From NCBI GenBank assembly GCA_934101645.1, contig CAKORX010000001.1, positions 81,051 through 145,050 of the forward strand: a DNA stretch of 64,000 bases, read 5' to 3'. The notes below the pieces were generated by a model. That model searched no databases and was not told where the DNA came from. It saw only the letters and a program-made list of their open reading frames with translations. Origin of the DNA: an uncultured Bacilli bacterium (GTDB taxonomy: Bacteria; Bacillota_I; Bacilli_A; RF39; UBA660). Position 1 is the first letter of the stretch. Every line of letters begins with the position of its first letter. The position numbers and the translations under genes were made by a program. Below are positions 7,594 through 46,118 of the stretch, piece after piece.

Positions 7594-7745
7594 AAACCAA
7601 AACCCTCCCGATGGTTTACTATACTACCATACAAAAATATTATTGTCAATTAACATTTTCCTTTCTCTAGTAGTATAGAAATAATTATTCAAATTTATAC
7701 GAAAAAATAACCAAATTTTGGAAAATTTGATTATTTTTAAATTAT

Positions 7746-9356: not shown

Positions 9357-9533
9357 ACTACCCTTTTCTCTTTCATAAATACGATATCCATTATTTCAAA
9401 AACTATTACATTTAGAAATAACTCTATCTTATTTTTGTACCATTATAAATATATTTTATCATACTTTCATATTAAATAATATAAATTTTCATTAAATCAC
9501 ATATTTTTTTATAAATGTTTAACTTAATTTTAT

Positions 9534-9558
9534 AAAAAAAGCACATAATGTGCTAAAA
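9534..9558 (-). terminator. Intrinsic terminator downstream of paralog 2
   Basis: The minus strand reads GCACA-tta-TGTGC followed by T7, with an A7 run on the other side. Confidence 0.6.
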
Positions 9559-11169: not shown

Positions 11170-11207
11170 AGTAATATTTTAACACATTTCAAATTATATA
11201 GGAATAT

Positions 11208-11229
11208 AAAAAAAGCACAAAATGTGCTA
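11208..11229 (-). terminator. Intrinsic terminator after sortase gene 2. It overlaps the sortase TAG stop and lies only ~40 bp upstream of paralog 2.
   Basis: The minus strand reads GCACA-ttt-TGTGC followed by T7. The same stem sequence occurs in the terminator at 9534..9558. Confidence 0.55.
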
Positions 11230-15895: not shown

Positions 15896-17283
15896 TACTT
15901 CACCTCATATGTAGTACCTTCTCTAGTATCTTTTAATAAAATACCTTTTGAAAGTAGTTCTTCTCTAATTGAATCAGCTAAAGCAAAATCTTTATTTTCT
16001 TTTGCAATACGTCTTTTTTCAATCATTTCATTTATATAATTTTCATCTAAATTATGAGTTTTTTCTTTTGTTAAATCAAGTGATAACACTTCATCCCACT
16101 TATTAACAAGTTCATATTTTGTAATATCATTTGTATGCTCATCTTTAAGTAAATCATATAATAGTGTGATTGCATTCGCAGTATTTAAATCATCTTTTAA
16201 ATATTCAATAAATTTATTATTATAAAATTCATATGCATCAGAACTTACACTGCCCTCTTTTTTCAAAGATAATACTTTATTTTTTAATTTTTTATATGCA
16301 ATTTCTGCTCCGTCAAGGGAAGCATATGAAAATGTAAGTTGTCTTCGATAATGAGATTGCAAGCACATGAATCTGAATGAAAGTGGATTATAGCCTTTTT
16401 GAATTAATGTTTGAACTGTTAAAATGTCTCCCTTACTTTTACTCATCTTACCAGATTCATCATTTAAATGTTCATTATGAAACCAATAATTACACCATTT
16501 ATGTCCTAAATAACTTTCTGATTGAGCAATTTCATTTGTATGGTGCGGAAAAATATTATCAACTCCTCCGCCATGAATATCTAAATGCTCTCCTAAATAT
16601 TTAATTGATATTCCAGAGCATTCAATATGCCATCCTGGATAACCTGTTCCAAATGGAGAGTCCCATTTAAGTTCTTGGTCATCAAATTTAGATTTAGTAA
16701 ACCATAAAGCAAAGTCAGCTTGATTACGTTTATTTTCATCAAAATCTACTCCATCACGAGCACCAATTACCATTTCATCTTCTTTGTGATTTGTTAAAAC
16801 ATAATAGTCTTTTAATTTAGATACATCAAAATAAACATTACCACCAGCTTTATATGCATATCCAGTATCAAGAAGTTTACTTATAATTTTTATGTATTCA
16901 TCTATATTATCTGTGGCGTTACTTACTATTTCAGGCATTTTACAATTTAGAGCCTCAAAGTCTTTAAAAAATGCATCTTTATAAAAAGCAGCTATATCAA
17001 GTACTGACTTATGTTCTTTTTTAGCACTTTGAACCATTTTGTCATCACCTGAATCACTATCAGATGTTAAGTGTCCTACATCGGTTATATTCATACATCT
17101 TGTAACATCAAAGCCAATAAATCTTAAGGTTTTATCAAGTATATCATGTCCAATATAATTTCTCATATTACCAATATGTGCATAATGATAAACTGTTGGA
17201 CCACATGTATAAAATGTAACCTTTCCTTCTTTCCAAGGAATGAATACTTCTTCTTTATGTGTTAATGTATTATATATTTTCAT
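15895..17283 (-). CDS. cysS: Cysteine--tRNA ligase
   Basis: Class I aaRS HIGH motif (HIGNMRNY), KMSKS, and the Cys-ligase Zn-binding pattern. Confidence 0.95.
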   Translation of the reverse strand: MKIYNTLTHKEEVFIPWKEGKVTFYTCGPTVYHYAHIGNMRNYIGHDILDKTLRFIGFDVTRCMNITDVGHLTSDSDSGDDKMVQSAKKEHKSVLDIAAFYKDAFFKDFEALNCKMPEIVSNATDNIDEYIKIISKLLDTGYAYKAGGNVYFDVSKLKDYYVLTNHKEDEMVIGARDGVDFDENKRNQADFALWFTKSKFDDQELKWDSPFGTGYPGWHIECSGISIKYLGEHLDIHGGGVDNIFPHHTNEIAQSESYLGHKWCNYWFHNEHLNDESGKMSKSKGDILTVQTLIQKGYNPLSFRFMCLQSHYRRQLTFSYASLDGAEIAYKKLKNKVLSLKKEGSVSSDAYEFYNNKFIEYLKDDLNTANAITLLYDLLKDEHTNDITKYELVNKWDEVLSLDLTKEKTHNLDENYINEMIEKRRIAKENKDFALADSIREELLSKGILLKDTREGTTYEVK

Positions 17284-17372
17284 AATCTTTCTCCTTATCA
17301 GTATATTATACTATATTTTAGTAAAAACAAAAAGGTTATAATTCTAATTTTTGTCTATTAAAAAAGAAGGAT

Positions 17373-18794
17373 TTACCTTCTTAAATTTTCAAGAGTTTTT
17401 TCTTTTCCAAGTAGATAAATACAAGCATCTAATTCAGGTCCATGCATAAATCCACTTGCTTTAATCCTAAGAGGCATATATAAAAGTTTGCCTTTTACAT
17501 TTAAGCTATTTTTGGTGTTTTCAATAGCAATATTAATATTATCAGTTGTAAAATCTTCGATAGCTTCGATTTCTCTTGCAAATGTATCAATAACTACTGG
17601 AATAATTTCATCACTTTCTAAAAATGCTTTACACTCATCATCTAACTCATATCCTTCGAAAAAGAAATTTTTAATTACATCATTAATCATTTCTCCACAG
17701 TTTATATGAGTTTTATATGTTAATAATAACTTTCTTACCCACTCTTCAGATTTATTAGAAATATCAAATTTAATAAATGGCTTTATCCATTCTAGATATC
17801 TTTCATCATCCATTTCTTTAATATAATGAGCATTAAACCACTCTAGTTTTTTTATGTCATAACATCCAGGTGCTGAAGATATTCTTGTTATATCAAAATT
17901 TTCCTCAAGTTCTTTTAAAGTAAATATTTCCTTGTTATCTTTTGGAGCCCAGCCAATTAAGGCAATATAATTAATAATTGCTTCAGGTAAAAAGCCACGA
18001 TTAATAAGGTCCATTAAATTATCATCTTTGTTTCTCTTACTAATTTTTGTGCCATCTGCTTTAATTACTAAAGGTTGATGAATATATATTGGACTTTCCC
18101 AACCAAGAGCCTTATATAAAAGTAAATATTTTGGTGTGCTTGATAAATATTCATTACCTCTATTAACATGACTTATTTCCATTAAGTGATCATCAATTAC
18201 ATTGGCAAAGTTATATGTAGGAAAGCCATCACTTTTGATAAGAATTTGATCCTCTAAAGTGGAATTATCAACTTTTATTTCTCCATAAACAGTATCAATA
18301 TATGAAGTTACTCCCGCTTTTGGCATTTTTTGACGAATAACATATTTTTCACCATTTGCAATTCTTTGTTTTGCTTCCTCTAAAGGAATATGAGAGCAAT
18401 GTCCATCATAAGTAAACGGTACTTTTCTTGCACTAGCAATTTCTCTTAGTTTATTAAGTCTTTCTTCATCACAAAAACAATAATAAGCATCACCTTGTTC
18501 AACAAGTTTTTCTGCATACTTTTTATAAATATCTAATCTTTCACTTTGATAATAAGGTCCAAAATCTCCGCCTACTCCAGCGCCTTCATCAGGTTTTAAA
18601 CCCATCATATTAAGTGTGTTTAAAATGAATTCTACTGCTCCTTCAACTTTTCTTTCTTGATCAGTATCCTCGATTCTTAAAATAAATTCTCCACCCATAC
18701 TTTTTGCAGTTAAATAAGCAAATAAGGCACTTCTTAAATTACCTATGTGCATATATCCTGTAGGGGAAGGAGCAAATCTAGTTCTAACTTTCAT
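17373..18794 (-). CDS. gltX: Glutamate--tRNA ligase
   Basis: HIGH motif (MHIGNLRSALF) and KISKR (KMSKS-like). Length and N-terminal MKVRTRFAPSPTGYMHIGN are typical of GluRS. Confidence 0.95.
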   Translation of the reverse strand: MKVRTRFAPSPTGYMHIGNLRSALFAYLTAKSMGGEFILRIEDTDQERKVEGAVEFILNTLNMMGLKPDEGAGVGGDFGPYYQSERLDIYKKYAEKLVEQGDAYYCFCDEERLNKLREIASARKVPFTYDGHCSHIPLEEAKQRIANGEKYVIRQKMPKAGVTSYIDTVYGEIKVDNSTLEDQILIKSDGFPTYNFANVIDDHLMEISHVNRGNEYLSSTPKYLLLYKALGWESPIYIHQPLVIKADGTKISKRNKDDNLMDLINRGFLPEAIINYIALIGWAPKDNKEIFTLKELEENFDITRISSAPGCYDIKKLEWFNAHYIKEMDDERYLEWIKPFIKFDISNKSEEWVRKLLLTYKTHINCGEMINDVIKNFFFEGYELDDECKAFLESDEIIPVVIDTFAREIEAIEDFTTDNINIAIENTKNSLNVKGKLLYMPLRIKASGFMHGPELDACIYLLGKEKTLENLRR

Positions 18795-18802
18795 ACTACC
18801 TC

Positions 18803-19693
18803 CTAAAAATCATTTTTTTCTATATTTGAAACAGCTATACATCCGTCACTTGCGGCTGTAACTAATTGATAAACACCCTTTTTTATACAATCGCCAATTG
18901 CATAAAGTCCATCAATCTGTGTTTCAAAATTTTCATCTACTATAATATCACCATTTATATTAGTTATGTCAAGACTTTTAAACATATCAGTATCAGGTCT
19001 ATACCCAATATAAATAAATATGCCTTTTACATTAATAACATTTCCATTATCAAGTAAAACACTATTAATCTTACCATTTTCTTCATTAATTTTTTCTACA
19101 TTTACTCCACCAATAATTTCAATGTTATTAGTATTTTTTACATTTTCTACTAATGCATCATCGCCTTTAAACTTATTTCCTCGATGAAGTAAATAAACTT
19201 TTTTTGCAAGTTTTGCTAAATAAAGGCTTTCCTGAAGTGCCGAATTACCTGAGCCTACAACTGCAATATCTTCATCTTTATATAAAAAGCCATCACATGT
19301 AGCACACGTACTAATTCCCCTTCCTAAATAGTCTTTTTCATTATCAAGTCCTAAATATTTTGGAATTCTTCCAGTGGCAACAATAATATTTTTTGCTTGA
19401 TAATTACCATTTTTCGTAGTTACTACTTTAACATCACTACTTGTATCAATGCTTATTACCTCTTCCATTTTAAAGGGAATATCTAATTTTTTAACTTGAT
19501 TAAATAAATTCATTGCAAGATCTACGCCTTTTATTTCTTCATATCCAGGATAATTAGAAATTTTTTCAATTTTTGTAAGCGTTCCCCCCGGAGTAGACTT
19601 TTCAAACATTAGAACATTTAAACCCGCTCTTTTAGCATAAATACCCGCAGTTATACCACCAATACCCATGCCAATAATTATTACATCATACAT
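18803..19693 (-). CDS. trxB: Thioredoxin-disulfide reductase
   Basis: FAD-binding GxGxxG at the N-terminus. The redox-active CATCDG motif and an NAD(P)-binding GSGNSA motif are present. Confidence 0.85.
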   Translation of the reverse strand: MYDVIIIGMGIGGITAGIYAKRAGLNVLMFEKSTPGGTLTKIEKISNYPGYEEIKGVDLAMNLFNQVKKLDIPFKMEEVISIDTSSDVKVVTTKNGNYQAKNIIVATGRIPKYLGLDNEKDYLGRGISTCATCDGFLYKDEDIAVVGSGNSALQESLYLAKLAKKVYLLHRGNKFKGDDALVENVKNTNNIEIIGGVNVEKINEENGKINSVLLDNGNVINVKGIFIYIGYRPDTDMFKSLDITNINGDIIVDENFETQIDGLYAIGDCIKKGVYQLVTAASDGCIAVSNIEKNDF

Positions 19694-23509: not shown

Positions 23510-23884
23510 TTAATTTTCATTATTCATATTGTATTTTTCTACTCTTTTAATGCATTTTGAACTTTTTGGTTTAGTAAAACATTCCATACAAACATCATAA
23601 TCATTTTTTACAGCATCAAAACCAGTTATCAAAGGATATATTCCATTCATAATACTAGGCAAAAAGAATATTACTACTGCAATAATAAATTTATTTATAA
23701 GTGATTTAATACCCTTTTTTATTTCTTTATCATCATCAGAAATAACTGCTTTTCCTAAAGTTAAAATACCCATTACAATTAACACTATTGGAAGTAAAAT
23801 TTTAACAATTATAAGTATATATCCTAAATTTTGCCATACAGTAATTGTACTTTGGCAAAAACCATTTTCAGTCCCAAGTCCCAT
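23510..23884 (-). CDS. Small 2-TM membrane protein with a Cys-rich C-terminal tail, paralog of the next gene. Function unknown.
   Basis: 124 aa. Two hydrophobic helices are separated by the charged loop SDDDKEIKKG. The C-terminus carries the motif CMECFTKPKSSKC. Confidence 0.55.
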   Translation of the reverse strand: MGLGTENGFCQSTITVWQNLGYILIIVKILLPIVLIVMGILTLGKAVISDDDKEIKKGIKSLINKFIIAVVIFFLPSIMNGIYPLITGFDAVKNDYDVCMECFTKPKSSKCIKRVEKYNMNNEN

Positions 23885-23983
23885 ACAAATCTCCCCTTCA
23901 TTAAAAATATATCACTAACTATACCACATATTCAAAAAAAATACAAATAAAAAACCATTATCACTTAAGATAATGGTTAATTA

Positions 23984-24367
23984 TTAATTTCCTCCAGATA
24001 CAGGACATTTAGATTGTGGACTACCAATACATTCAACACAAACCATGTAATCAGGTTTAACGTCATTAAATCCATTTACTAAATTAAAACATGCAGTAAC
24101 GATATTTGGTAAAAAGAATATTACAACTGCCGCAATAAACTTAGTTATTAATCTATTAACTTGCGTTTTAATTTCCTTATCATCATCTGCAAGAACTGCC
24201 TTTCCAAGTCCAATAATTCCTAAAACGATTAAAACAACTGGAATAACAATTTTTAAAACTAAAACAATTCTTCCAACAAATTGCCAAACGTCAGCTGTTT
24301 GTGAGCAAAATCCGTCAGCACCGCCTAAAGTAGATGGATCAAAATCATCAAATAATCTCATATACAA
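23984..24367 (-). CDS. Small 2-TM membrane protein with a Cys-rich C-terminal tail. Function unknown, possibly a pilin-like accessory.
   Basis: 127 aa with the same architecture as the previous gene (loop LADDDKEIKTQ, C-terminal motif CVECIGSPQSKC). Its topology only superficially resembles VirB2/TrbC. Confidence 0.55.
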   Translation of the reverse strand: MYMRLFDDFDPSTLGGADGFCSQTADVWQFVGRIVLVLKIVIPVVLIVLGIIGLGKAVLADDDKEIKTQVNRLITKFIAAVVIFFLPNIVTACFNLVNGFNDVKPDYMVCVECIGSPQSKCPVSGGN

Positions 24368-24439
24368 CTCTCCTTTACATACCTATATTTTACCTTTTTT
24401 ATATATTTATGTCAATATTTACTACAAATAGTTTACAAG

Positions 24440-25438
24440 CTATCTAAAGATACTAAATCCAAAAGATTCTTTATCAGAAATTCTTGTAAAACCTAATTCT
24501 TTAAGTAACTTATTAATTATCTTGTTATCGTCAATTTTATCATCAACATTTGGTAAATTGAAAAATACTTTACTACCACTTTCTTTTTCAAAATCACTTA
24601 CATCGTTATCGTTTAATACACTACGATTTAAGATAATCTTTTTGCCTTTTAACTTTTCAAAAGCCTTATGATCTGTTTTAATTAATTTATTAAGCTGAAT
24701 AAGGCCAGGCTCAATTAAATAAATTATATCCGTACAATAAGAACTTGCATCAGCATTATTCATATCAATTATAATAACTTCAGCATCTTTATTACTTGCA
24801 TCATCTAAATATTTTTCTATATCAAAACTATTTACATTGCTTTTTAAATTACTATCATTAAAATAAACAAAATCGCTTTTATCTAGTTCTGCAGCTTTAA
24901 CTTTATATTCCTTTTCTAGATGTTTTTTTAATAAATAAGCAAGTGTAGTAGCACCAGCATGTTCAGTAACATTTTTAATACCTAAAACTCTTCTTCCAAT
25001 AAAACCAACACTTTTATCAACTGCTTTATCATTAAGTTTTCTTTCTTCAGCTGCCATATTCAAATTATGATAATTGGCAACATCTTTGTATGTATTTGGG
25101 TTATCTATTAAAAAAGGTATAGAATCTACATTTTTTGTAAAATTGTAAATACCCATTGATACAAGACTTGACAAATACATTGGTGAGTTTACCTTCGGAG
25201 AATCATCTAAAAGTAAAATTACTTTACTCATGTCAAGAGCTACTGACAAATCTTGAATTGTGTTAATATCCTCGTAATTTTCAAGTGCTGTAATATCTAA
25301 AATCATTCTATTGTAATAAAAATTTTTGAATTGAGATGCTAAATCATTTACCTCAAAAACCCCGTTTAAAGTTTTAATTACATCTATGCCTAAACCAGCA
25401 AGTAATGCTTCATTTTTATTTGAAATAATAACGTTCAT
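24440..25438 (-). CDS. TadZ/CpaE-like pilus-assembly protein with a MinD/ParA-type ATPase fold and a degenerate P-loop
   Basis: The N-terminus is a receiver-like domain. The central segment GIKNVTEHAGATTLAYLL aligns to the MinD P-loop region but lacks the Lys. The gene lies immediately downstream of the pilin genes, as in Tad loci. Confidence 0.5.
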   Translation of the reverse strand: MNVIISNKNEALLAGLGIDVIKTLNGVFEVNDLASQFKNFYYNRMILDITALENYEDINTIQDLSVALDMSKVILLLDDSPKVNSPMYLSSLVSMGIYNFTKNVDSIPFLIDNPNTYKDVANYHNLNMAAEERKLNDKAVDKSVGFIGRRVLGIKNVTEHAGATTLAYLLKKHLEKEYKVKAAELDKSDFVYFNDSNLKSNVNSFDIEKYLDDASNKDAEVIIIDMNNADASSYCTDIIYLIEPGLIQLNKLIKTDHKAFEKLKGKKIILNRSVLNDNDVSDFEKESGSKVFFNLPNVDDKIDDNKIINKLLKELGFTRISDKESFGFSIFR

Positions 25439-25449
25439 AAAAAACCTCC

Positions 25450-25968
25450 TTAACTATATAATAATTTTGTTTCACCAATTGCTCTAAAATTAAATATGGC
25501 ATGTAAAACTGGAATATCTAACTGATAAAAAACATATACACGATAATAATAACCTTTTAGTGTATCCTCAGATTTATTACTATCTATCTTCGCAATGCAA
25601 AAAGAACTTTTTTTACCACTTAAAGTTTTATCGCCATTTCTCTGATAACCAACCATATCTACGACAACACTGCCGTTTTCATTAAATGGTATATCTTCAC
25701 AACTTCCTTGTTGACGATAAGAATTACTTTCTAATGAATCAACAATATTTTGTAAAGTGGCTTGATCTTTATTATCCATATTACAATTTCCTAAGAAACA
25801 TTGAGCGCTTGTATCAAATCCTCCAGCAGTTTCGATTATTGAAACTATTTGGTCCTTTACAGCAAAAGCATTAGCCTGATTTAATGTAAGAGACATTACT
25901 CCTGCAAAAATAAGTACCATTACAACAACAATTAAAAATAATTGTATTCCGCCTATTCCTTCTCTCAT
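25450..25968 (-). CDS. Pseudopilin-like protein, TadE-like. It has an N-terminal hydrophobic segment after a short charged leader.
   Basis: The N-terminus reads MREGIGG|IQLFLIVVVMVLIFAG followed by an extracellular domain. Its position in the Tad-like operon supports the call. Confidence 0.4.
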   Translation of the reverse strand: MREGIGGIQLFLIVVVMVLIFAGVMSLTLNQANAFAVKDQIVSIIETAGGFDTSAQCFLGNCNMDNKDQATLQNIVDSLESNSYRQQGSCEDIPFNENGSVVVDMVGYQRNGDKTLSGKKSSFCIAKIDSNKSEDTLKGYYYRVYVFYQLDIPVLHAIFNFRAIGETKLLYS

Positions 25969-25974
25969 AACTTA

Positions 25975-26196
25975 CTACCCCTTAAACATACATTGGAAAC
26001 TTTTACCATCTAAGGTGCAATTTACCATACCATTTTCATCAGGATACACTGAACAACTTGCTTTTTCACAACTTGTTTGCGCAACAAAATTAGTTTTAAT
26101 TATTGGCCATATTGTAAAGTAAAAAAAGGCTACGAGAATAGCCACACAAACACATACAACAACAAGATTTGCTAGACTTCCCGTAGCATTTTTCAT
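25975..26196 (-). CDS. Flp-type pilin-like small protein with a Cys-rich C-terminus
   Basis: 73 aa. The N-terminus MKNATGSLANLVVVCVCVAILVAF is a short polar leader ending in G plus a hydrophobic helix. It shares the K-x-A-T-G-[ES]-L-x-N motif with the next gene. Confidence 0.55.
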   Translation of the reverse strand: MKNATGSLANLVVVCVCVAILVAFFYFTIWPIIKTNFVAQTSCEKASCSVYPDENGMVNCTLDGKSFQCMFKG

Positions 26197-26220
26197 TTTT
26201 TCTTACTCCTTTTTGATTAA

Positions 26221-26481
26221 TTATTGACCTACTGTACAATCACATTGAATAGTGTCTTCGCTAATATTCATACCAGCAGCACTATCAGCATCTGTGTAAT
26301 AATGGCATTCTTGAGTACCATTATCACATGCAGTACATTGTACTGCAGCATGACAATAAGTTCTTGCTCTAATAGCGTTTCTTAAAGCGGGATATAAGAA
26401 TACTGTGAATAATGTTAGTATAGCAGCAATTGCAACTACAGTTATAACAGTGTTACTTAATTCACCTGTAGCTTCCTTCAT
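26221..26481 (-). CDS. Flp-type pilin-like small protein with a Cys-rich C-terminus
   Basis: 86 aa. The N-terminus MKEATGELSNTVITVVAIAAILTLF is followed by 8 Cys in the C-terminal 50 aa. Confidence 0.55.
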   Translation of the reverse strand: MKEATGELSNTVITVVAIAAILTLFTVFLYPALRNAIRARTYCHAAVQCTACDNGTQECHYYTDADSAAGMNISEDTIQCDCTVGQ

Positions 26482-28259: not shown

Positions 28260-29402
28260 CTATAATGAATCAATAGCTTCCATTTTTGGCATTTCTAATT
28301 CTACATCTTCATTATTTGTTTCTTTTTTTACTTCATCGGTGTTATTAACTTCATCAAATAAAGTTTCATCAAGTTTCTTTCCTTGTGCTCCAAAATAATC
28401 CTTTAAATATTTCGTAGGTTTATTAAATGAAATAGTTCCATCCAAGCTCTTAGAAAATATTTTATTTACACCAGCTTCATTATTTTCATCTACATAAAAT
28501 TCCGCAACCTCAACTATTTCACGTTGAAATCTTTGAAGTTCTGCACTCATGTATCCTTTAACATGGATACCAATTTGTACATATCTATGAATTGATTTTA
28601 AAAATTGTTCAATATCTTGATTGCTTTCAAGAAGTGAATACATACGCATTGGAATATGACTTGCACTATCTGAGTGAATTGTAGAAATAATATTATGTCC
28701 TGATGAAATAGAGTTACGTACAGCAGTAACAGCTTCGGCAGAACGAACTTCGGAAAGTAGTATCCATTTAGGATTCTGTCTCATACATGTTACAAGTACA
28801 TCAGAATACGATGCAATATTATTGGTTTTCATTGCAACAATATCTCTATGTGGAAAAATTCTATCTAAATGTAATTCCAAAGTATCTTCGATTGTAATAA
28901 TTTTTTCGTTTTCCTCAGTATTTGAAGCTAAATATTTAGCAAGTTCAGTTTTACCTGAACCAGTTTCACCGGAAATAATAATATTGCAGTGTGCTTTAAC
29001 ACATGATATTAAAAAATTATGTACATTTTCAGTAACATATTTTTCATTAAGTAATTTTTCTTTATTAAGTCTTATCTTTGCAGGTGTTTTTCTTATAACA
29101 CATGCAATTCCATTTGTAGCAATACTTTCATGAACAAAGTTAAGACGAAGTTCTGTACTTTCGGCATCCAGAAATGGATGAGCCATGTTAAATGTAGTTC
29201 CCATAACATTTGAACATTGAAAAGCAAGTTTTTCCATTAAAGCATTATTTATTTCAGGTCTATTGACCATATATATACCTTTATCCAAAGTTTTTAGCCA
29301 AACATTTCCACCATTTGAGTACGAAATATCGGTAATATTATCATCATTTAAAAACTCAGTTATTGGTCCAAAATCTAATTGTGAAAATATTGATTCTTTC
29401 AC
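28260..29402 (-). CDS. tadA: Secretion ATPase of the CpaF/TadA/VirB11 family
   Basis: Walker A in IIISGETGSGKTE. His-box-like SSGHNIISTIHSDSA. GTG start with a GGAG RBS. Confidence 0.8.
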   Translation of the reverse strand: MKESIFSQLDFGPITEFLNDDNITDISYSNGGNVWLKTLDKGIYMVNRPEINNALMEKLAFQCSNVMGTTFNMAHPFLDAESTELRLNFVHESIATNGIACVIRKTPAKIRLNKEKLLNEKYVTENVHNFLISCVKAHCNIIISGETGSGKTELAKYLASNTEENEKIITIEDTLELHLDRIFPHRDIVAMKTNNIASYSDVLVTCMRQNPKWILLSEVRSAEAVTAVRNSISSGHNIISTIHSDSASHIPMRMYSLLESNQDIEQFLKSIHRYVQIGIHVKGYMSAELQRFQREIVEVAEFYVDENNEAGVNKIFSKSLDGTISFNKPTKYLKDYFGAQGKKLDETLFDEVNNTDEVKKETNNEDVELEMPKMEAIDSL

Positions 29403-29424: not shown

Positions 29425-30195
29425 TTATTCTTCTGGTAATGGTGAAGTCTTAGCTAATATAAAGTTCTTTAGATATTCTACAGTAACAGTACTAGCATTT
29501 TTTTCTGTATATGCTTTATTACGAGGTACAGGTACTAAAGTAATACCTGAAATATATCCAGCATACATTAATAATTTATACATGTCATTTGGTACGGCAA
29601 ATAAAAGTTCAGCAGGTGTTCTTGTCTCAGTAGAGCCAAATACATCTTTACCACTTGCATCACGTACACCTAAAACTGTGATACTTTCAATAAAGTTACC
29701 AAACATAATTTTTCCACTATCATCAGTAGCTTTTAAATAAAGGTCAATTTTATCACCAGGATAAATTGAATTACCAAATGTTGTATGATTATTAACAGAC
29801 ATACTATAAATTGTATGCTTATCTGGAATATTATCAAATACTGAGTTTGGTAGTTCAGCTTTTGTAACTACTTGAGTTTTATAGAAAAGTCCTCCTTTAG
29901 GAATAGATGTACCAGTAGTAACATAATAACCAATTAAAGCTCCTTGACTTTGAATAATATCTGCAGTTTTTAAGAGTTTATTATTAACCTCTACAAACCC
30001 AATCTTATCTTCAGTAATTTCTTCTGTAGCTTTAATCTCTTCCTTTGCATAAGGTACTCTTATCGGTGTTGTTGCCTCTTTTACTCTTGCTGAGTAAAAA
30101 GCCCAAAGTACAACAATACCTGCAAGTACAAGTAAAATAGTAACTGTATTTTTATTTGCAACAGTCTTTCTAATAAATTCTTTTATATTTCCCAT
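29425..30195 (-). CDS. cpaB: Flp pilus assembly protein CpaB/RcpC-like (N-terminal TM plus a SAF-like domain)
   Basis: The likely start is ATG at 30195 (MGNIKEF...) with a GGAGGA RBS. The ORF is open further upstream to 30270. TM is TVTILLVLAGIVVLWAF, and the SAF-like region is ADIIQSQGALIGYYVTTGTSIP. Confidence 0.5.
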   Translation of the reverse strand: MGNIKEFIRKTVANKNTVTILLVLAGIVVLWAFYSARVKEATTPIRVPYAKEEIKATEEITEDKIGFVEVNNKLLKTADIIQSQGALIGYYVTTGTSIPKGGLFYKTQVVTKAELPNSVFDNIPDKHTIYSMSVNNHTTFGNSIYPGDKIDLYLKATDDSGKIMFGNFIESITVLGVRDASGKDVFGSTETRTPAELLFAVPNDMYKLLMYAGYISGITLVPVPRNKAYTEKNASTVTVEYLKNFILAKTSPLPEE

Positions 30196-30314
30196 TTTTA
30201 TCCTCCATATTGATAATCTTCTACTATCAATTAAAATTATAGCAATTTTTAAAAATATTTTCAATAACATATCATAAAAAAAGACACATTTTTATTCTCG
30301 TGTCTTTTTGGTTT

Positions 30315-31463
30315 TTATTTGAATGCTATATATTCAGTAAATGCACTATTTACATTATCATACTTTTCACAAGATTGTCCTACCATCGGATTATAAACTT
30401 TAAAACAATTGTTAGTTGCATCATAACCATAAATAGTGTAATAATGTCCACTTTTTGTACTTTTCAAAGTTGAATCACTTCGTGCAGAAAAACCTGGTGC
30501 TAAAGATGCAACGACTACCTGACCACTTGCTAATGCATCATATATTGCCTTTGCATGACCGGATGGACCTTCGCCAAATTTTCCTCCAGACCCAGCAACA
30601 CTGATTCCGATTGAATTATAAAAACTATTACTTTGATTATAGTCATTAACTCTTCCACAGAATAAACTGCTTGAGGCATCAGTAGTATTACTTGTCGGAT
30701 CTCCATTTAATCCTACTTTATTCATTCCAACATAAGCAGCTGCTGCAAGTTTGTTATAATCACTGCCATTATAACCTGTTGCACTCTTCAAATTATTTAC
30801 TTTACCTAGAAAATATGCAGCTTCAGTAATAGCAATTGGTCCACATGCACAGCCAAAGTTTACATTGTAATCACCCCATGTAGTAGACACATTTTCACGT
30901 CTACTAGACTGATATATATTCGCAGGATTAATATTAAATCCAACGTCATGTAATTCTTCATCGCTTGGTGTTTCTTCATCAGGATTTGTAGGTGTATCTG
31001 GATTAGTCGGTGTTGTTTGATCTGGCTCTTTAACATTTTCTCCAGTTCCTTGACTATCTTTAGTCTTTGTTTCAAGAATTGCATCAATTCTATTAACAAT
31101 ATCAAATGTTGTTGAATCACCGCTTACATTAAATGCTGCAGATTTACTTGAAACTTGAACACCAACTTTTGGTGGAGCCTCGTAAATCTCAGTAAATTCG
31201 ATAGTATAAACAGTTGAAAGCGAAGCTTCTTCAGCAAATCTTCTTAAAAAAACTTCATAAAACTTTTCTTTGTTAATTTTTATCTCACCGTATTGACGGT
31301 AATAAGCATAATCTACTGCATCAACCATAGCTGACTCAGTAATTTCTTTTACTAAATAATAATCTTGTGTATTAGTTGAAGTATAGCTTTGGACAAGAAG
31401 GAGTACTACTATGATAAATACTCCTAAAACCATTAGCCAATAGCCCCAATAGGATTCCTTCAT
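30315..31463 (-). CDS. Membrane-anchored protein with a C-terminal papain-like cysteine peptidase domain (C39-like / BtrH-like)
   Basis: N-terminal TM. A Pro/Thr-rich linker (TPTNPDTPTNPDEETP). Catalytic-type Cys in NFGCACGPIAITEAAYF and His in SGHYYTIYGYD. Confidence 0.6.
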   Translation of the reverse strand: MKESYWGYWLMVLGVFIIVVLLLVQSYTSTNTQDYYLVKEITESAMVDAVDYAYYRQYGEIKINKEKFYEVFLRRFAEEASLSTVYTIEFTEIYEAPPKVGVQVSSKSAAFNVSGDSTTFDIVNRIDAILETKTKDSQGTGENVKEPDQTTPTNPDTPTNPDEETPSDEELHDVGFNINPANIYQSSRRENVSTTWGDYNVNFGCACGPIAITEAAYFLGKVNNLKSATGYNGSDYNKLAAAAYVGMNKVGLNGDPTSNTTDASSSLFCGRVNDYNQSNSFYNSIGISVAGSGGKFGEGPSGHAKAIYDALASGQVVVASLAPGFSARSDSTLKSTKSGHYYTIYGYDATNNCFKVYNPMVGQSCEKYDNVNSAFTEYIAFK

Positions 31464-31475
31464 TTCATACCCTCC

Positions 31476-34400
31476 TTACTTCCATGATGGTCCAACATCT
31501 GGTATACCATCACCATTTGTATCTAGTGAACTGAATTTATATATTGTCCAGTAATCATTTGTTACAACATCGCTCATTGTTCCAGCAGGACCTGTATAAA
31601 TTGTACTAAAGTTCTCTTTATTTTTTGTTCTGCCATCTTTATTTGCCATTTCTACTTTACCACCAAAATCATCGTTTAAAAGTTTATCAACAAATGTACT
31701 GTAGCAGAAAATGTTACTCATTCGACAAGTTTTGTCAGTATCATTAAATGAATAGCCATTCTTTTTACAACGATTTTCATCATAACCAGTTAGAACATAA
31801 TCTTCACATTTTAAAGTATCATTATTATATGTGCCTTGTTCTTTATTATATTCTCTAATTTTTGTTATCATATCTGTATCCATTGTAACTTTTAATGTAT
31901 ATTTTTCTACAGTTGGTACTCCTGAAGAACCACCACTTCCTTGACCAGTTTCTCCAGTCGCACGTTTAGTTATTTCTGTTCTTGTATCGCCAGCTTTTCT
32001 TGCAACTAATTTATTACCATATACATTAGCATTAGTTTCCCAGTTGAATCCAACAACACGGTCAGTTGGGAATAGGTTTCCTGGACTTACAGGTCTAAAA
32101 TCGTAAGATGGCTTTGATGGTGTATTAGGATCTTCTCTAGTTACAACACAGTCAATACACTCTACTACACAATTTGGACAACAATTATAATTTCTTTCAC
32201 ATTGTTCACCAGGAGTGCAGCCAACTGCAGCAAGTGCTTCTTGTCTAGAATTCATCTTCTGACAAGTTGAATCAAAATAGTTATTATCACAAACATAATA
32301 TCCTTTTGATTCCATTACACAATACCTTGCTTCACTAGATGCAGGGCAAAGTCTTTCTTTACATGTATCCCAATCCTCATCTTTGTTACATTCAGTTTTA
32401 TAATGTGATTTTCCAGAACTATCAACACATTCACTTTGTGATACTTCATAAGTACATGCATATTGATTTCCATCAAGTGTTATTCCAGAATTATCATTTG
32501 TTGTTGTAGTTTCTGATTTTCTAATTCCTTTATCAATATAATAGTTTGACATACTATCGCTTGATGTTCCAAATATACGTCCAAGTGTTGGACTTGTTGA
32601 ATAGAATGTACCAATATTATCAAGAGTTAAAATATAATAATATACTCCTTTTGCGGTATTAATTCCAACAGGTAAACCATCAACTCTATCATAGTTTTCC
32701 ATTTCAGTTTGGTTAGCTATTTTTATATTACCATCATCATGGCCTGAGAAATAAACTCTTGCTGTATTATATGTTCCTATAGAAGAAGCAATTTTATGAA
32801 CATATTTTATCTTTGTTACTGGGAACTCAGAATCATTTGATGTATTAGAACATGTGATTTCTCCCTCATCACTTTCAGGTACATCACATACAAAGTAATG
32901 TTCCTTATCATAAGATATTTCAGTACTTCCATCACATGTATCATAAGCATTATTTACTTCACCATCACAACGCCATGTAGTATCATGAATATTTCCATCT
33001 ATATCTTCTACTTGAGTAGCTTGTTCACAGTTAGCACTACCAGATGCACAAACCTCTGCTTGAACTTTTTCATCAGGACTTATCATTATATCGCAAGTAC
33101 CTTTTTCACAAGACAATCCTTGAACTTCATTTATCCATTTTGAAACAGAATTGTTGCCAGGTTCAGGTTCTTGATAACTATATTTTACATATGGATCATA
33201 AACATAAACCATATCCCAATTTAATTTTTTAGTAGTATCTCCAGACACACTTGTATAATCTTTGTCATCACCACATGAATTATATTTATCAACTATTTCT
33301 TTTAATTCTTCAATAGCCTTTGTAATTTTTGCTTTTGCAGCATTTCTCTTTTCTTCGAAACCACTCTTTTGACTTTCCCAATCACTTTTTGCAGATATGC
33401 ACATTGGGTCTTTGCTTGAATCTTCTTTACCAAAGTAAGATTTATTTCCCATATTAGTATCACTGAATACATCACTTGGATTACCTTTACTAAATGTTAT
33501 TTTCTTTCCATCATCTTCGACAGTATATTTAATGAATTTATTGCTATGGTTAATATAATATTTATACTCTACATCAGCACCTTCATCATCACTACATTTA
33601 ATTTCTTGGCTAGTATCTTTTATCCAAGTTTCAGTCTTATCTACAAATGTTAAATTTTCATAATAATATAGCCATTCATTATATGCATCAACTATTTCTT
33701 TTTGTTTTTCAACAACATCTTTGCTATATTGGTCTTTATCAATCTTAGTTGTATAGCAATCTTGTTGGCCCTTAATTTTAACACTTATTTGGAAATATCT
33801 TCCAGCTTCGGCTGTCTTTTTATAAGGTACACCAAATTTATAATCTTCTTTACATCTTACCTCACAATAAGGGTTATCTTGAACAGCTTGAGCATTAGTT
33901 GCATCAACATATTTATAAGAATTATCTGCAATATCTTTGCTGTCCTTTTTTAATAAACACTTTTTAATATTATAAGTTTTTGTATCAGGATTGTATGCTT
34001 CTCTAAACTCATAATCTAAATATTCTTCTATATCATTTTCATCGTATTTTACTAAATTATCACTATCACCAGGTTCACAAATTGTAGGTATTGTTACTGT
34101 TGGTTGGCATTTAGTATCACTACATAATTGTGTATTTAAAGTAAAATCGCCATTTACTGGTTCTGTGCTTGAAACTAAGAATCTTTGAATTTTGCTATCT
34201 TTACTAGTTTCTCCTTTTGGAGAAATTCTCGCTCCAGAAAAAGCTGATGTATATTCATATTCAATTTTTATACTAACAGAACAATCTTCCTCTGAATCCT
34301 CTTCATCGGCATCATCGTATTTATCTTCTTTTGTAAGTGTTAAAGAAAATCCTAAATAAAGTGTGCCTTTTCTATCACTATCACTTAATTTTTGTGACAA

Positions 34401-35261
34401 ATCCTCATTACTACTTACTGGGTCCCAACCTTCCACACTGTCATTAAAAGTTTTAGAAACCCCAAGGAATTTAACAGTAGCTCCATTTTTGGCTATTATT
34501 TCTGGTTCCTTAGTTAATTTAAAATATTCATCTGTACTTGTACCAGTTATATTGTTAATATCTAACTTGATTGAAACTATTTTTGTATAAGTAATTGTAC
34601 CATTCTCGGTAACTTTATTAATTTGACCTTCTTCGCCTTTTTCTACTTTAGTAGCCTTATTATCTTTAGAGTATTCTGCAGCATAATTTAAAGCTTTAGT
34701 TAAAATTTCTTTTACAGGAGAAGCTGCACTTGCATTACCAGCATACGCAGCAGTTGTAGTGACTTTCGCGCCGCCGTAAGCATTATAGGCTTTACTAAAC
34801 TCTTCGTCCTTCAAAAATTCTTTAACAAGAGCTCCTTCTTGGCTTACAAAGGCAGGATCATTAGAATTTTCAAATCCAGGTTGAATAACATCAGTAAGAA
34901 TTCTTAGTGCATAATGTTTAACATTATATTGGTTTGAATTATTCATTATGTACAAAGCCGCATAATCATATTTTGCAACAGTCGAACTTGTTGATGAAGG
35001 TAAAAGCCTTCCAACAACAAAATTTGAACCGTTAGGTGAATTTCCTCTGTCTATACAAAATGCCTCAAAGCTTTTTCCTGTTGAACTCTGAGTTGCCTTT
35101 GATATAGAATAACCCATATTACTAGGAAAGCCAAGGCCAGAATCATGTGAATTATGATCGTTACTAATTGTAAATGATTCACCCATTTTAAAGGCATAAA
35201 CATTTGGAACAAATATTAAAGTGAAAATAAATATAAATAATAATTTTGATATTTTTTTCAT
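31476..35261 (-). CDS. Very large secreted Cys-rich protein (1261 aa) of unknown function, a candidate pilus-associated adhesin or substrate
   Basis: Signal peptide MKKISKLLFIFIFTLIFVPNVYA. No C-terminal TM or sorting motif. Contains about 70 Cys. Only 1 nt separates it from the upstream gene, so it is operonic. Confidence 0.7.
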   Translation of the reverse strand: MKKISKLLFIFIFTLIFVPNVYAFKMGESFTISNDHNSHDSGLGFPSNMGYSISKATQSSTGKSFEAFCIDRGNSPNGSNFVVGRLLPSSTSSTVAKYDYAALYIMNNSNQYNVKHYALRILTDVIQPGFENSNDPAFVSQEGALVKEFLKDEEFSKAYNAYGGAKVTTTAAYAGNASAASPVKEILTKALNYAAEYSKDNKATKVEKGEEGQINKVTENGTITYTKIVSIKLDINNITGTSTDEYFKLTKEPEIIAKNGATVKFLGVSKTFNDSVEGWDPVSSNEDLSQKLSDSDRKGTLYLGFSLTLTKEDKYDDADEEDSEEDCSVSIKIEYEYTSAFSGARISPKGETSKDSKIQRFLVSSTEPVNGDFTLNTQLCSDTKCQPTVTIPTICEPGDSDNLVKYDENDIEEYLDYEFREAYNPDTKTYNIKKCLLKKDSKDIADNSYKYVDATNAQAVQDNPYCEVRCKEDYKFGVPYKKTAEAGRYFQISVKIKGQQDCYTTKIDKDQYSKDVVEKQKEIVDAYNEWLYYYENLTFVDKTETWIKDTSQEIKCSDDEGADVEYKYYINHSNKFIKYTVEDDGKKITFSKGNPSDVFSDTNMGNKSYFGKEDSSKDPMCISAKSDWESQKSGFEEKRNAAKAKITKAIEELKEIVDKYNSCGDDKDYTSVSGDTTKKLNWDMVYVYDPYVKYSYQEPEPGNNSVSKWINEVQGLSCEKGTCDIMISPDEKVQAEVCASGSANCEQATQVEDIDGNIHDTTWRCDGEVNNAYDTCDGSTEISYDKEHYFVCDVPESDEGEITCSNTSNDSEFPVTKIKYVHKIASSIGTYNTARVYFSGHDDGNIKIANQTEMENYDRVDGLPVGINTAKGVYYYILTLDNIGTFYSTSPTLGRIFGTSSDSMSNYYIDKGIRKSETTTTNDNSGITLDGNQYACTYEVSQSECVDSSGKSHYKTECNKDEDWDTCKERLCPASSEARYCVMESKGYYVCDNNYFDSTCQKMNSRQEALAAVGCTPGEQCERNYNCCPNCVVECIDCVVTREDPNTPSKPSYDFRPVSPGNLFPTDRVVGFNWETNANVYGNKLVARKAGDTRTEITKRATGETGQGSGGSSGVPTVEKYTLKVTMDTDMITKIREYNKEQGTYNNDTLKCEDYVLTGYDENRCKKNGYSFNDTDKTCRMSNIFCYSTFVDKLLNDDFGGKVEMANKDGRTKNKENFSTIYTGPAGTMSDVVTNDYWTIYKFSSLDTNGDGIPDVGPSWK

Positions 35262-36096: not shown

Positions 36097-36753
36097 ATGA
36101 AAATAAAGAAATTTTTTAAAAATTTATTCAAAGATATTGGTATAATCATAGGATTTATTCTTATTATAGTTTTACTATCTAATACATTTAGAAAATATGT
36201 TAGTAAAAATTCTATGTTATGGCAAATAATTATTTTTTCTATAGCAAGTTTATACTTATTAATTATTTATAGAAAAGAATTTAAAAATTACTTTTTAGAT
36301 TTTAAAAAAAATTATAAAAAGCATTTATCAAAAGGATTTAAAATTTACATAATATGTTTATTTTTTATGTATGTAAGTAACATATTAATTTATTATCTAA
36401 CTAAATCTTTAGCCACTAACGAAACAATGAATCGTGCATCTGTTTCTCAAAATTTAATACTTTCAGTTATTGATATGTGCATTCTTGCTCCCTTTTATGA
36501 AGAAACTTTATCTAGATTAAACTTCAAAAATTTATTTTCAAATAAATGGACATTTTCCATAATAACGGGACTTGCTTTTGGTTCATTACATCTTTTAGTG
36601 GCTGAGTCTTTAGTAGAATGTTTATATTTAATACCTTACTCAATTATGGGTTTTTCCCTAGGATATATGTATTATGATACAAATAATATATTTACTTCAA
36701 TGAGTTTCCATTTTTTGAATAATTTCGTAAGTATATTATTACTTGTTTTATAG
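36097..36753 (+). CDS. CPBP-family intramembrane metalloprotease (CAAX protease / Abi-like)
   Basis: Polytopic. Motifs EETLSR (EExxxR) and FGSLHLL (FxxxH). Confidence 0.7.
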   Translation: MKIKKFFKNLFKDIGIIIGFILIIVLLSNTFRKYVSKNSMLWQIIIFSIASLYLLIIYRKEFKNYFLDFKKNYKKHLSKGFKIYIICLFFMYVSNILIYYLTKSLATNETMNRASVSQNLILSVIDMCILAPFYEETLSRLNFKNLFSNKWTFSIITGLAFGSLHLLVAESLVECLYLIPYSIMGFSLGYMYYDTNNIFTSMSFHFLNNFVSILLLVL

Positions 36754-36762
36754 GAGTAATTA

Positions 36763-37554
36763 ATGAAAAGATTTATATGTATTGTGATTTTGATATTAGT
36801 TTCCATATTTTTATATGCAAACTATATTAATGTTAAAGGTTATAAAATATATGAGTATGAAATAGCGTCAAATAAAATCACTAAAGGATTTGATGGATTT
36901 AAAATAGTTCATTTTTCTGATTTATTATATGATAAAGATGAAGATATTGAGGAAATAAAATTAATTATAAATAATTTAAATAAGCAAAATGCTAATATGA
37001 TAATTTTTACTGGTGACGTTGCAAAATCAAGTATAGCATCTGAAAAACTAAATGAAATTGGTACTTTATTTAAAAGTATAAATGCAGACTACAAATTTGC
37101 TATTATGGGAGACCACGACGATGAAAACACTAAAAATATGCTTAAAAATAGTGGCTTTGAAGTCTTAGAAAATAATTATGTATATGTCTATAATAAAGAT
37201 ATATCACCAATAAAAATAATGGCTTTAAATAATTTTAATGTTGATATTTTAAACAATGAAGATGAAATTAATCCAAGTTTTGTAATTGGGCTTTTGCATA
37301 AGCCAGATGAATTTAAAAATATTAAAGAATATAATATTGATGTAGTTTTCGCTGGACACTCTCTTGGTGGTCAAATTAGATTGCCCTTCTGGGGTGCTTT
37401 AATTAAAAAAGATGGTGCCAAAATATATACAAATAATTATTATGAAGAAAATGATACTATGATGTATGTAAGCTACGGAGTTGGCGTTGAAAAAACTCCA
37501 TTTAGAACTCTAAATAAGCCTTCATTTAATGTGTACAGATTAAAAAGCTTATAA
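36763..37554 (+). CDS. Membrane-anchored metallophosphoesterase of the calcineurin-like family
   Basis: N-terminal TM. Motifs GDVAK, IMGDHDDE and FAGHSLGGQ (GD / GDxxD / GH). Confidence 0.7.
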   Translation: MKRFICIVILILVSIFLYANYINVKGYKIYEYEIASNKITKGFDGFKIVHFSDLLYDKDEDIEEIKLIINNLNKQNANMIIFTGDVAKSSIASEKLNEIGTLFKSINADYKFAIMGDHDDENTKNMLKNSGFEVLENNYVYVYNKDISPIKIMALNNFNVDILNNEDEINPSFVIGLLHKPDEFKNIKEYNIDVVFAGHSLGGQIRLPFWGALIKKDGAKIYTNNYYEENDTMMYVSYGVGVEKTPFRTLNKPSFNVYRLKSL

Positions 37555-44711: not shown

Positions 44712-46118
44712 TTACTTTTTCTTAAGTTTTTTTGCTTTTTTATCATCATCAAATATATTAAATATATCCTCTTCATCTTCGAGTTTATCTTTAATTTCAT
44801 TTATTTGATTATCAATATGTTTTTCTGTTATATTACTTTTTACTGGATTTTTCTTACTTTTCTTTTTGGAACTTAATCCTATAATAGCAATCACAGAAAG
44901 CGCAGTTGAAGCAATAAATGCAATTGTTGAATATGTTAAAGATTTATTTTTAGTTTCTAAAGATTTTACATAACTATCATCATATTTAATAGCATTATGA
45001 TCTTTGGTATCATATAAATAAAGACCCTTTTCATTTGTTTCAACATTAATTGCCTTAATTATCTTATATCTATTTTGAGCATCAAGTTCCAAACACTCAA
45101 TTTTGTTTTCTCCTACTAAAACTTCACTTTTCTTGTAATCTTTAATACTTTCATCCATTTTAAGAGGATATAAAGTAAGACTTCCAAAAGTAAGTTCTAC
45201 GTATTTAGTATATTTTCCATCTTCATAAATAAATAAAGAAATATTTGCTTTTTCATCTTTTAAACCAACTAAAGTAAAGTCAGTAACTTCGCTATAAAAA
45301 CCAGGAACTTCCATTTCATTAATTGTTAATTTTTTTTCAATATAACTATTTGGTTTTGATAATAAACTTGCAACTTTTACAACAGTGTATTTTTCATTAT
45401 CAACCATTACTTCTATAGGATTTTTATCAACAACCTCGACATTTAATTTATAAGTTTTTTCACTACCATTTTCGGCAACCACAACTATATTAAAGGAATT
45501 TGTACCAGCACTAACTTCATGCTCTCCATCGCCATTTACACTTGCTTTAGCATCCTCTTTTTCTGCAATAACTTTAATCTTTGTTTCATCTTCATTAACT
45601 TTAACAGTATATTCAGTTGTATCTTTATTAAATGTAGGGCTTATTTCATAACCCTCAACAGTTAAGTTTTTTAAATTATTATTATTTGATAAACTTGCTT
45701 GATATTCAGCATAAGTTATTACTTTAACATTTCTTTTGCCATTACTAACATCGAAAATACTTTCATCCCAACCAAGAACTGCAGAAGCATCTATATAAAA
45801 TGATGCATTACCACTTTTATTTGCTTTAAAAACATATCTATGTGATTTAGATTTAGTATTAGCATTTGGTGCAGCCTCAGCGTAATGCAATTCGACATCA
45901 CTTGATACTAGAGTAAATAAATTTTTATCATAGTTTAAATTGTATTCCCAAGAACCAAGAGCAGATGCTGATGACACGGTTACAGTTACGGTTACATTAT
46001 TTCCTACTATTATTTGTGAAGCGTTAGTACTAACACTTATTGTTGCACTTGCAGCATATACATTACTTGCGCAAAATAAACACATTATTACAATTAAATA
46101 ACTTATTATTTTTTTCAT
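44712..46118 (-). CDS. Membrane-anchored surface protein with an N-terminal cohesin-like domain and a cadherin-like beta-sandwich domain
   Basis: Signal peptide. Cohesin-like region ATISVSTNASQIIVGNNVTVTVTVSSASALGSWEYNLNYDKNLFTLVS. Cadherin-like motif LKNLTVEGYEISPTFNKDTTEYTVKV. C-terminal TM with a K-rich cytoplasmic tail. Confidence 0.55.
   Translation of the reverse strand: MKKIISYLIVIMCLFCASNVYAASATISVSTNASQIIVGNNVTVTVTVSSASALGSWEYNLNYDKNLFTLVSSDVELHYAEAAPNANTKSKSHRYVFKANKSGNASFYIDASAVLGWDESIFDVSNGKRNVKVITYAEYQASLSNNNNLKNLTVEGYEISPTFNKDTTEYTVKVNEDETKIKVIAEKEDAKASVNGDGEHEVSAGTNSFNIVVVAENGSEKTYKLNVEVVDKNPIEVMVDNEKYTVVKVASLLSKPNSYIEKKLTINEMEVPGFYSEVTDFTLVGLKDEKANISLFIYEDGKYTKYVELTFGSLTLYPLKMDESIKDYKKSEVLVGENKIECLELDAQNRYKIIKAINVETNEKGLYLYDTKDHNAIKYDDSYVKSLETKNKSLTYSTIAFIASTALSVIAIIGLSSKKKSKKNPVKSNITEKHIDNQINEIKDKLEDEEDIFNIFDDDKKAKKLKKK

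Follow-up and report, generated by a model that had tools for sequence, protein, structure and literature searches.

Dedicated and often membrane-tethered wall hydrolases are well established for machines that span the bacterial envelope; they include VirB1, the conjugation proteins PrgK, TraG of pIP501 and TcpG of Gram-positive bacteria, the flagellar FlgJ and the type III secretion enzyme EtgA, and the Cpa/Tad pili of Caulobacter have PleA. The enzymatic domain of FlgJ differs or is missing in many bacteria. For the passage of Tad pili or other type IV filaments through the thick Gram-positive wall, our limited literature search revealed no dedicated hydrolase, nor did it reveal a machine hydrolase with a C39_2-type domain or a DUF5411 carrier. 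Here we analyse a gene located in a Tad-like pilus operon of an uncultured Bacilli bacterium (assembly GCA_934101645.1, contig CAKORX010000001.1), within a stretch of 64,000 nucleotides which is referred to as the window. Its product of 382 amino acids joins a DUF5411 domain, via a linker, to a cysteine peptidase of the Peptidase_C39_2 type. We consider it probable that this is an optional, tethered wall peptidase, which cleaves peptidoglycan locally for the passage of the pilus.

The protein resembles the machine-dedicated hydrolases because it is encoded inside the operon of the machine and fused to one of its components, and because the type of enzyme varies or is absent depending on the lineage. 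The described enzymes are mostly glycosidases (SLT, muramidase) or belong to the CHAP, NlpC/P60 and M23 families, whereas the domain studied here is of the C39_2 type and its role in the wall is one that we infer. The true C39 domains (PF03412) of ComA and PCAT1 are cytoplasmic, fused to ATP-binding cassette (ABC) exporters and cut double-glycine leaders. In contrast, the protein studied here has no PF03412 match in Pfam even at E<=10, is larger and carries insertions, would be extracytoplasmic, and is not associated with an ABC transporter, since Pfam scans detected no ABC exporter in the operon. DUF5411 itself was listed, with no function given, among the parts of a system in gut Clostridia which is predicted to be a type IV pilus or similar to type II secretion; the fusion of DUF5411 to a C39_2-type domain is absent from this publication, which is the sole paper we found to mention DUF5411 (PMC9523054).

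Architecture and catalytic residues of the fusion protein

In a preliminary description of this gene, a papain-like peptidase domain was proposed to be attached to the membrane by an N-terminal transmembrane segment and a Pro/Thr linker. All these elements were located in the translation: the Cys-motif stretch GCACGPIAITEAAYF occupies residues 204-218, the His-motif SGHYYTIYGYD residues 338-348, and the Pro/Thr/acidic stretch EPDQTTPTNPDTPTNPDEETPSDEE residues 146-170 of a low-complexity linker which differs in length and sequence between the homologs (alignment columns ~133-200). The only strongly hydrophobic segment (residues ~6-25) is the transmembrane helix, which together with the neighbouring genes agrees with a membrane-tethered protein of a Tad-like pilus operon. 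However, the N-terminal part is more than an anchor, as the helix belongs to a full DUF5411 domain (residues 1-133). The protein would be a bitopic membrane protein, and DUF5411 is a highly conserved core component of the pilus operon. The C-terminal domain most likely faces the extracytoplasmic side, since it follows the transmembrane helix and the Pro/Thr linker and is replaced by extracytoplasmic wall enzymes in sister proteins.

The profile search proposed in the same description gave a match above the gathering threshold: Peptidase_C39_2 (PF13529) covers residues 231-360 of the protein with 32.8 bits (gathering score 24, E 1.2e-7). This match spans profile positions 27-143, thus leaving out the Cys motif itself. 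In a more distant homolog (P0123, 37% identical), the match is stronger (43.3 bits, profile positions 16-143) and begins at the second Cys of CSCGP, which is why Cys207 at the equivalent place is assigned to the C39_2 nucleophile position. Another homolog, P0121, also passes the gathering threshold (33.1 bits). With the C39_2 family (clan CA, exemplified by the putative peptidase of Bacillus anthracis, PDB 3erv), the protein shares the CGP nucleophile motif and the GH...YGY His motif; it departs from the family in that a second invariant Cys stands two positions ahead of the nucleophile (CACGP), in three further invariant Cys residues and in the fusion to DUF5411.

Homologs of this domain are few. 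The full-length query gave 22 homologs with 54-99% identity, although none was returned for the C-terminal domain alone, which we attribute to a word-index limitation. The exhaustive search of 1.84 billion cluster representatives with the C-terminal domain revealed only four sequences at E<=1e-3, and from this search two more distant homologs were added to the set. No match was obtained when the protein was scanned against NCBIfam or when the C-terminal domain was searched against PHROGs, and the PDB sequence search, performed with the single protein and with the family profile, gave nothing meaningful (best E ~0.4-0.9, unrelated chains). A biochemically characterised close homolog of the domain was not found in the sequence searches. 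Judged from these searches, the C39_2-type domain represents a very narrow, divergent branch of its family. The closest relative lacking DUF5411 is P0123, whose contigs are only 1.1 kb long and offer no gene context.

Conservation of the catalytic residues was analysed in the alignment of 24 sequences with identity down to 29%. Residues Q185, C205, C207, G208, P209, C269 and H340 are invariant in this set. For N358-P359, C353 and C365 this is true of the closer homologs, and in the full alignment they are nearly invariant. The nucleophile motif may be written as C-x-C-G-P, being CACGP in the studied protein and CSCGP in P0123. Together with the Pfam match, this conservation bears out the assignment to papain-like cysteine peptidases of the C39_2 type.

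The AlphaFold model of residues 170-382 has a predicted local distance difference test score (pLDDT) of 95.5 and a predicted template modelling score of 0.92. According to DSSP, C207 is placed at the N-terminus of a helix, H340 opens a strand and N358 closes the next one. Judged from these secondary-structure positions and from the superposition scores, the model has the canonical papain-like arrangement, in both the fold and the conserved catalytic residues. The highest score was obtained with the pseudomurein endoisopeptidase PeiR, a wall endoisopeptidase (14.3), followed by Staphopain C (12.6), Alr0975 (12.2), the C39-like peptidase 3erv of B. anthracis (12.1) and double-glycine peptidases (~11). 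The similarity to PeiR (PDB 8z4h; with PeiW and PeiP, MEROPS C71) is restricted to the fold: sequence identity is 17%, there is no Pfam C71 match, the genomic context is different, and the Pei enzymes come from methanogen viruses and proviruses and act on archaeal pseudomurein, unlike the setting described here. Among the viral models, the best superposing are domains that lie within tape-measure proteins or within tail proteins named “morphogenesis protein 1 / hydrolase”, and two surveys (PMC8223927, PMC13284279) place Peptidase_C39_2 among the catalytic domains which endolysins of Gram-positive phages use. The PeiR fold match, the use of C39_2 in endolysins and the viral tail-protein matches are consistent with wall cleavage, but they do not prove it.

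Exchange and loss of the peptidase module

The operon was searched in one genome per species and found in 52 genomes, almost all of which are uncultured gut “Bacilli”, “Mycoplasma sp. CAG:472”, “Tenericutes” or Candidatus Onthocola metagenome-assembled genomes. DUF5411 is present at the same operon position in all 52 loci, although its C-terminal part varies. The bare form of 135-142 amino acids prevails (37/52); the C39_2 type occurs in six genomes, Peptidase_M15 in four (in one of them with SH3_3), Peptidase_M23 in one, and a tail of ~100 amino acids without a family match in four. An alternative genetic code was considered for the short open reading frames (ORFs) and rejected: they end with TAA or TAG, and the start of the CpaB-like gene comes right behind, so the proteins are genuinely short. 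This ~100-residue tail is Cys-rich and stands in place of a peptidase in DUF5411 proteins of ~235-246 amino acids (P0030 and others, from L016, L025, L032 and L045).

The same picture emerges from the proteins themselves. Among ~200 DUF5411 homologs, the C-terminal types were tallied for the best 120 protein clusters: 22 of them carry the C39_2 type, 19 Peptidase_M15/VanY (some with SH3_3, Big_2 or fn3), two Peptidase_M23, two only Big_2 or only a Listeria-Bacteroides repeat, and 75 no recognisable extra domain. In syntenic operons, DUF5411 is combined with SH3_3 and Peptidase_M15 (P0028, L001, L015), with M15 alone (L014, L018, L021) or with Peptidase_M23 (P0072, L003, L019). By sequence reading, the metal-binding motifs are intact both in M23 (HxxxD and HxH in P0072) and in M15 (HxxxxxxD and EWWH in P0028).

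The contigs with M15 and SH3_3 (L001), M23 (L003) and C39 (L004) share one gene order, namely a ~240-amino-acid protein, a giant protein of ~1300 amino acids, DUF5411 with its module, an RcpC-like protein, the ATPase, proteins of ~300 and ~262 amino acids, the pilins, and proteins of ~170 and ~330 amino acids. All other operon genes, among them those for the pilins and for the giant protein, accompany DUF5411 in any of its forms wherever the contig is long enough. In the neighbour-joining tree of the N-terminal domains, the C39 forms make up one clade, which also encloses two bare forms, the M15 forms appear in three places and the M23 forms in one clade; this pattern therefore indicates a repeated gain and loss of the module. 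In the M15 and SH3_3 lineage (L001, L002, L015), an insert of ~4 kb (~15400-19450) with RelB-like, BipA/TypA GTPase and Metallophos genes splits the operon between the TadC-like and pilin genes. In L011 (Mycoplasma sp. CAG:472) and L013, the DUF5411 and giant genes are present and no CpaB or ATPase genes occur within the next 10 kb, which represents either a rearranged operon or a broken assembly.

The loss is best seen in the close relative L012, in which 37 bp stand in place of the DNA encoding the linker and peptidase, while on both sides the flanking DNA is ~90% identical to the window. The DUF5411 ORF of L012 encodes 141 amino acids, the N-termini of its pilin and pseudopilin are identical to those of the window over more than 30 residues, and the giant protein is kept (1288 amino acids, 69% identical). 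Given this loss and the M15 and M23 domains found in the same slot, the peptidase is a module which can be dispensed with and for which known cell-wall peptidases can be exchanged.

Cleavage of peptidoglycan beside the pilus machine is the simplest common denominator of these observations, because the module is exchanged for two classical families of peptidoglycan peptidases and for the wall-binding SH3_3. The VanX/VanY-type M15 and LytM-type M23 families are specialised for wall peptides with D-amino acids or rich in Gly. An action on peptidoglycan was among three roles suggested in the preliminary description, and it is the only one which the evidence favours. We suppose that in this lineage an active papain-like peptidase (Gln185, Cys207, His340, Asn358) was grafted together with a flexible linker of ~40 residues onto the C-terminus of DUF5411. 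Through DUF5411 the enzyme would be kept where the pilus is assembled, and the linker would let it reach from the membrane into the wall. There it may locally cut stem peptides or cross-links in the peptidoglycan of its own cell, opening a passage for the pilus and perhaps also for the operon's large surface proteins. The module would then be an accessory, functionally interchangeable with the M15 and M23 enzymes of sister lineages and dispensable in many others. The genes for sortases, VanY, SLT and PASTA proteins in the window indicate that the organism has a wall to cross.

Several points weigh against this explanation. Both the position of the C-terminal domain outside the membrane and peptidoglycan as its substrate are what we infer. 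The same operon is built without a fused hydrolase in 37 of the 52 genomes, hence wall cutting by the DUF5411 protein is not generally required, and the module could serve some other lineage-specific purpose. Moreover, the domain family is tiny, so that its role cannot be deduced from a close homolog of known activity.

The Tad-like operon and its surroundings

All genes from 35988 down to 23510 of the window are located on the minus strand and form the conserved block (Table 1). The secretion ATPase is of the TadA/CpaF type according to its PF00437 match, and its best NCBIfam models are VirB11, TrbB and the conjugation-type TadA, not CpaF or PilB, all far below their cut-offs. The true start of the RcpC/CpaB-like gene is probably MGNIKEF at ~30195, as suggested by the starts of its homologs. 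By their position only, the two polytopic proteins are presumed to be platform proteins similar to TadB and TadC, and the 332-amino-acid protein, which has no family match, is taken as TadZ/CpaE-like from its operon position and sequence reading. The pilin candidates possess a G↓E/S-L junction and have no Flp match in Pfam. On this evidence, the machine is best called Tad-like; it is a divergent system of the type IV filament kind and does not conform to the textbook picture of a Tad locus.

Table 1. Positions of the studied gene, its functional elements and the conserved pilus operon in the window
Feature	Position	Strand	Basis or remark
Whole gene: DUF5411, linker and C39_2-like cysteine peptidase, 382 amino acids	30315..31463	minus	ORF list, Pfam; stop codon 30315-30317
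DUF5411 domain, residues 1-133	31065..31463	minus	PF17424, E 3.7e-54; structure model; all 52 genome loci
Transmembrane helix of DUF5411, residues ~8-25	31389-31442	minus	continues into long helix, then three-stranded sheet
Linker, low-complexity, Pro/Thr/Asp/Glu-rich, residues ~134-175	30939..31064	minus	alignment and motif position
Papain-like Peptidase_C39_2-type catalytic domain, residues ~176-382	30318..30938	minus	
Gln185 codon, candidate oxyanion-hole residue	30909-30911	minus	invariant in both alignments
Cys207 codon, predicted nucleophile, second Cys of CACGP	30843..30845	minus	invariant; first residue of helix, domain residues 38-49
His340 codon (GHYYTIYGY), predicted general base	30444..30446	minus	invariant; opens strand, domain residues 171-179
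Asn358 codon (YNP), predicted third triad residue	30390..30392	minus	end of strand, domain residues 184-189
Linker and peptidase module, 716 bp, replaced by 37 bp in L012	30316..31031	minus	blastn of window against L012
First gene of conserved block, 241 amino acids, signal peptide and C-terminal transmembrane segment	35263..35988	minus	
Upstream giant gene, 1261-amino-acid Cys-rich secreted protein	31476..35261	minus	no family match; position kept in all related loci
RcpC/CpaB-like gene	29425..30270	minus	RcpC 26.7 bits (gathering score 28.8) and SAF; TIGR03177 28 bits (cut-off 71)
T2SSE-family secretion ATPase (TadA/CpaF/VirB11-like)	28260..29402	minus	PF00437, 100.7 bits
Two polytopic membrane proteins, 300 and 263 amino acids	26552..28247	minus	no Pfam/NCBIfam family; 58-98% identity in related loci
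Pilin-like genes: 86 amino acids (MKEATG↓ELS...), 73 amino acids (MKNATG↓SLA...), 172 amino acids, pseudopilin-like (MREGIGG↓IQLF...)	25450..26481	minus	N-termini shared with L001, L003 and L012
332-amino-acid gene and two paralogous ~125-amino-acid membrane proteins, 3' end of conserved block	23510..25438	minus	

Some further features of the operon should be mentioned. The two paralogs of ~125 amino acids (within 23510-24367, minus strand) possess Cys-rich tails and weakly resemble T4SS_pilin (PF18895, a Gram-positive family) with 19.9 and 23.7 bits, below the gathering score of 26.6; in nearly all related loci they close the operon on its 3' side. The giant protein, the gene of which always lies directly upstream of the DUF5411 gene, is fast-evolving, with 21-78% identity among relatives as compared to 70-98% for the ATPase.

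Peptidase_A24 was detected neither among the ORFs of at least 100 amino acids in the window (Pfam) nor in the Pfam annotation precomputed for the related contigs, and a prepilin peptidase of this family may be encoded elsewhere in the genome. Divergently from the pilus operon, on the plus strand (36097-37554), lie the genes for an intramembrane CPBP protease of the Rce1-like kind (PF02517; 36097-36753) together with a Metallophos phosphoesterase; this pair, or at least the phosphoesterase, occupies the same position in most related genomes. In view of the negative A24 search, the CPBP protease may be considered as a candidate for leader processing.

The window also contains a separate locus of the sortase-assembled pilus type (3555-11952), which includes two sortases (3555-4370, plus strand; 11227-11952, minus strand), a VWA/DUF4183 protein of 1063 amino acids (4402-7593, minus strand) and two paralogs of 536 amino acids without a family (7746-11169, minus strand). 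An SH3_3-bearing dockerin protein (46131-48086, minus strand), a cadherin-like-domain protein (44712-46118, minus strand) and a phage-type integrase (54806-55882, plus strand) are encoded further on. A dockerin is unusual for a Bacilli lineage with reduced genomes.

Alternative roles and significance

Among the alternatives to cleavage of the cell's own wall, the first to be weighed is an enzyme directed outwards, which would be displayed at or near the pilus and act on foreign material, either the walls of neighbours (antagonism or muropeptide scavenging) or host and mucus proteins. The M15, M23 and SH3_3 swaps fit an attack on the walls of other cells equally well, the pattern of presence and absence together with rapid turnover suits an accessory or “weapon” module, and the N-terminus of DUF5411 resembles those of the operon pilins. 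The hosts are uncultured gut Bacilli with reduced genomes, and RF39-type lineages are predicted to have incomplete synthesis of peptidoglycan precursors and possibly a need for muropeptide scavenging (PMC10868615). However, no immunity gene is evident adjoining the peptidase gene, and the linker of ~40 residues would keep the anchored enzyme in or near its own wall unless it is built into the fibre, so that we regard an outward action as rather unlikely.

The preliminary description also suggested cleavage of the adjacent giant protein, and the enzyme may be imagined more broadly as a maturation protease for the operon exports (the 1261-amino-acid Cys-rich and the 241-amino-acid proteins), similar to surface proteases of the sortase or staphopain type. 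In every locus the peptidase gene is immediately downstream of the giant gene, which would suit such a partnership. Nevertheless, both exported proteins are present in the 52 genomes, with or without the peptidase module, wherever the contig extends so far, L012 retains its giant protein after the loss of the module, and the alternative M15, M23 and SH3_3 modules belong to families specialised for wall peptides, not for protein maturation. Obligatory processing of the giant protein is therefore disfavoured, a lineage-specific trimming of it may occur, and a maturation role as a whole seems to us quite unlikely.

Another alternative is that DUF5411 is a prepilin-like minor pilin, for which the C39_2, M15 and M23 domains are the enzymatic cargo of a “modular pilin” placed on the fibre or at its tip and digesting the walls of neighbours. 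The N-terminal 25 residues of DUF5411 are almost invariant (M1, W6, Y8, W9 and G14 invariant, position 7 being G or A in the 52 genomes), and they have the pattern M-K/R-E-x-x-x-G/A in common with the N-termini of the operon pilins; the N-terminal tail of the studied protein consists of seven residues, MKESYWG. In the DUF5411 model (pLDDT 73.8), an N-terminal helix of 46 residues (3-48) is followed by two short helices and a three-stranded sheet (strands 86-129), a pilin-like topology which is suggestive only. In Streptococcus sanguinis, modular pilins bear adhesin modules (PilB with a vWA module, PDB 7b7p, and PilC with a lectin module), whereas the module described here is an enzyme, the protein lacks Glu5 and no prepilin peptidase was identified. 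We consider such cargo improbable; if true, the modular-pilin pilus would be a wall-digesting tool, for antagonism or for a muropeptide harvest by gut Bacilli with reduced genomes, whose own synthesis of peptidoglycan precursors is predicted to be incomplete.

An M-K/R-E/N-x-x-x-G N-terminus with a hydrophobic helix is common to both pilins, the 172-amino-acid protein and DUF5411 (31440-31463). All four may be substrates of one leader peptidase.

A catalytically dead or substrate-binding papain-like domain, serving as an adaptor or adhesin, is very improbable, since every homolog, even at 29% identity, keeps Gln, Cys and His, while Asn is kept with few exceptions at most, and the motifs around these residues (CGP, GHY.(.)IYGY, YNP) are typical of enzymes that are active. 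Hardly any credence can be given to the enzyme being the prepilin leader peptidase, which would cut after Gly to remove the MKEATG and MKNATG leaders in place of the missing aspartic TadV/CpaA: classical C39 peptidases indeed cut after Gly-Gly and Peptidase_A24 was not detected in the window ORFs and related contigs searched, but L012 and the M15 (L001) and M23 (L003) operons keep the same leaders (MKEATG↓EL in the latter two) without the C39 domain, 37 of the 52 genomes have a bare DUF5411 with no module, prepilin leaders are removed at the cytoplasmic face of the membrane while the domain most likely lies outside, and PF03412 gives no match. This suggestion of the preliminary description is thus largely refuted.

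Neither the C39_2 domain family nor the concept of wall hydrolases dedicated to a machine is new, whereas the use of DUF5411 as a carrier, the exchange of three peptidase folds at a single operon slot and the association with a Gram-positive Tad-like system appear to be undescribed. DUF5411 may be regarded as a docking platform onto which three unrelated peptidase folds were repeatedly grafted and from which they were lost again. Local wall cleavage by the tethered peptidase offers a testable candidate for the wall-opening activity of Gram-positive type IV filaments, a functional hint for DUF5411 and a likely substrate class for the divergent C39_2 branch. The hosts are abundant, uncultured gut Bacilli, and if the enzyme acts on the walls of other cells instead, the interest of the finding would be even greater.

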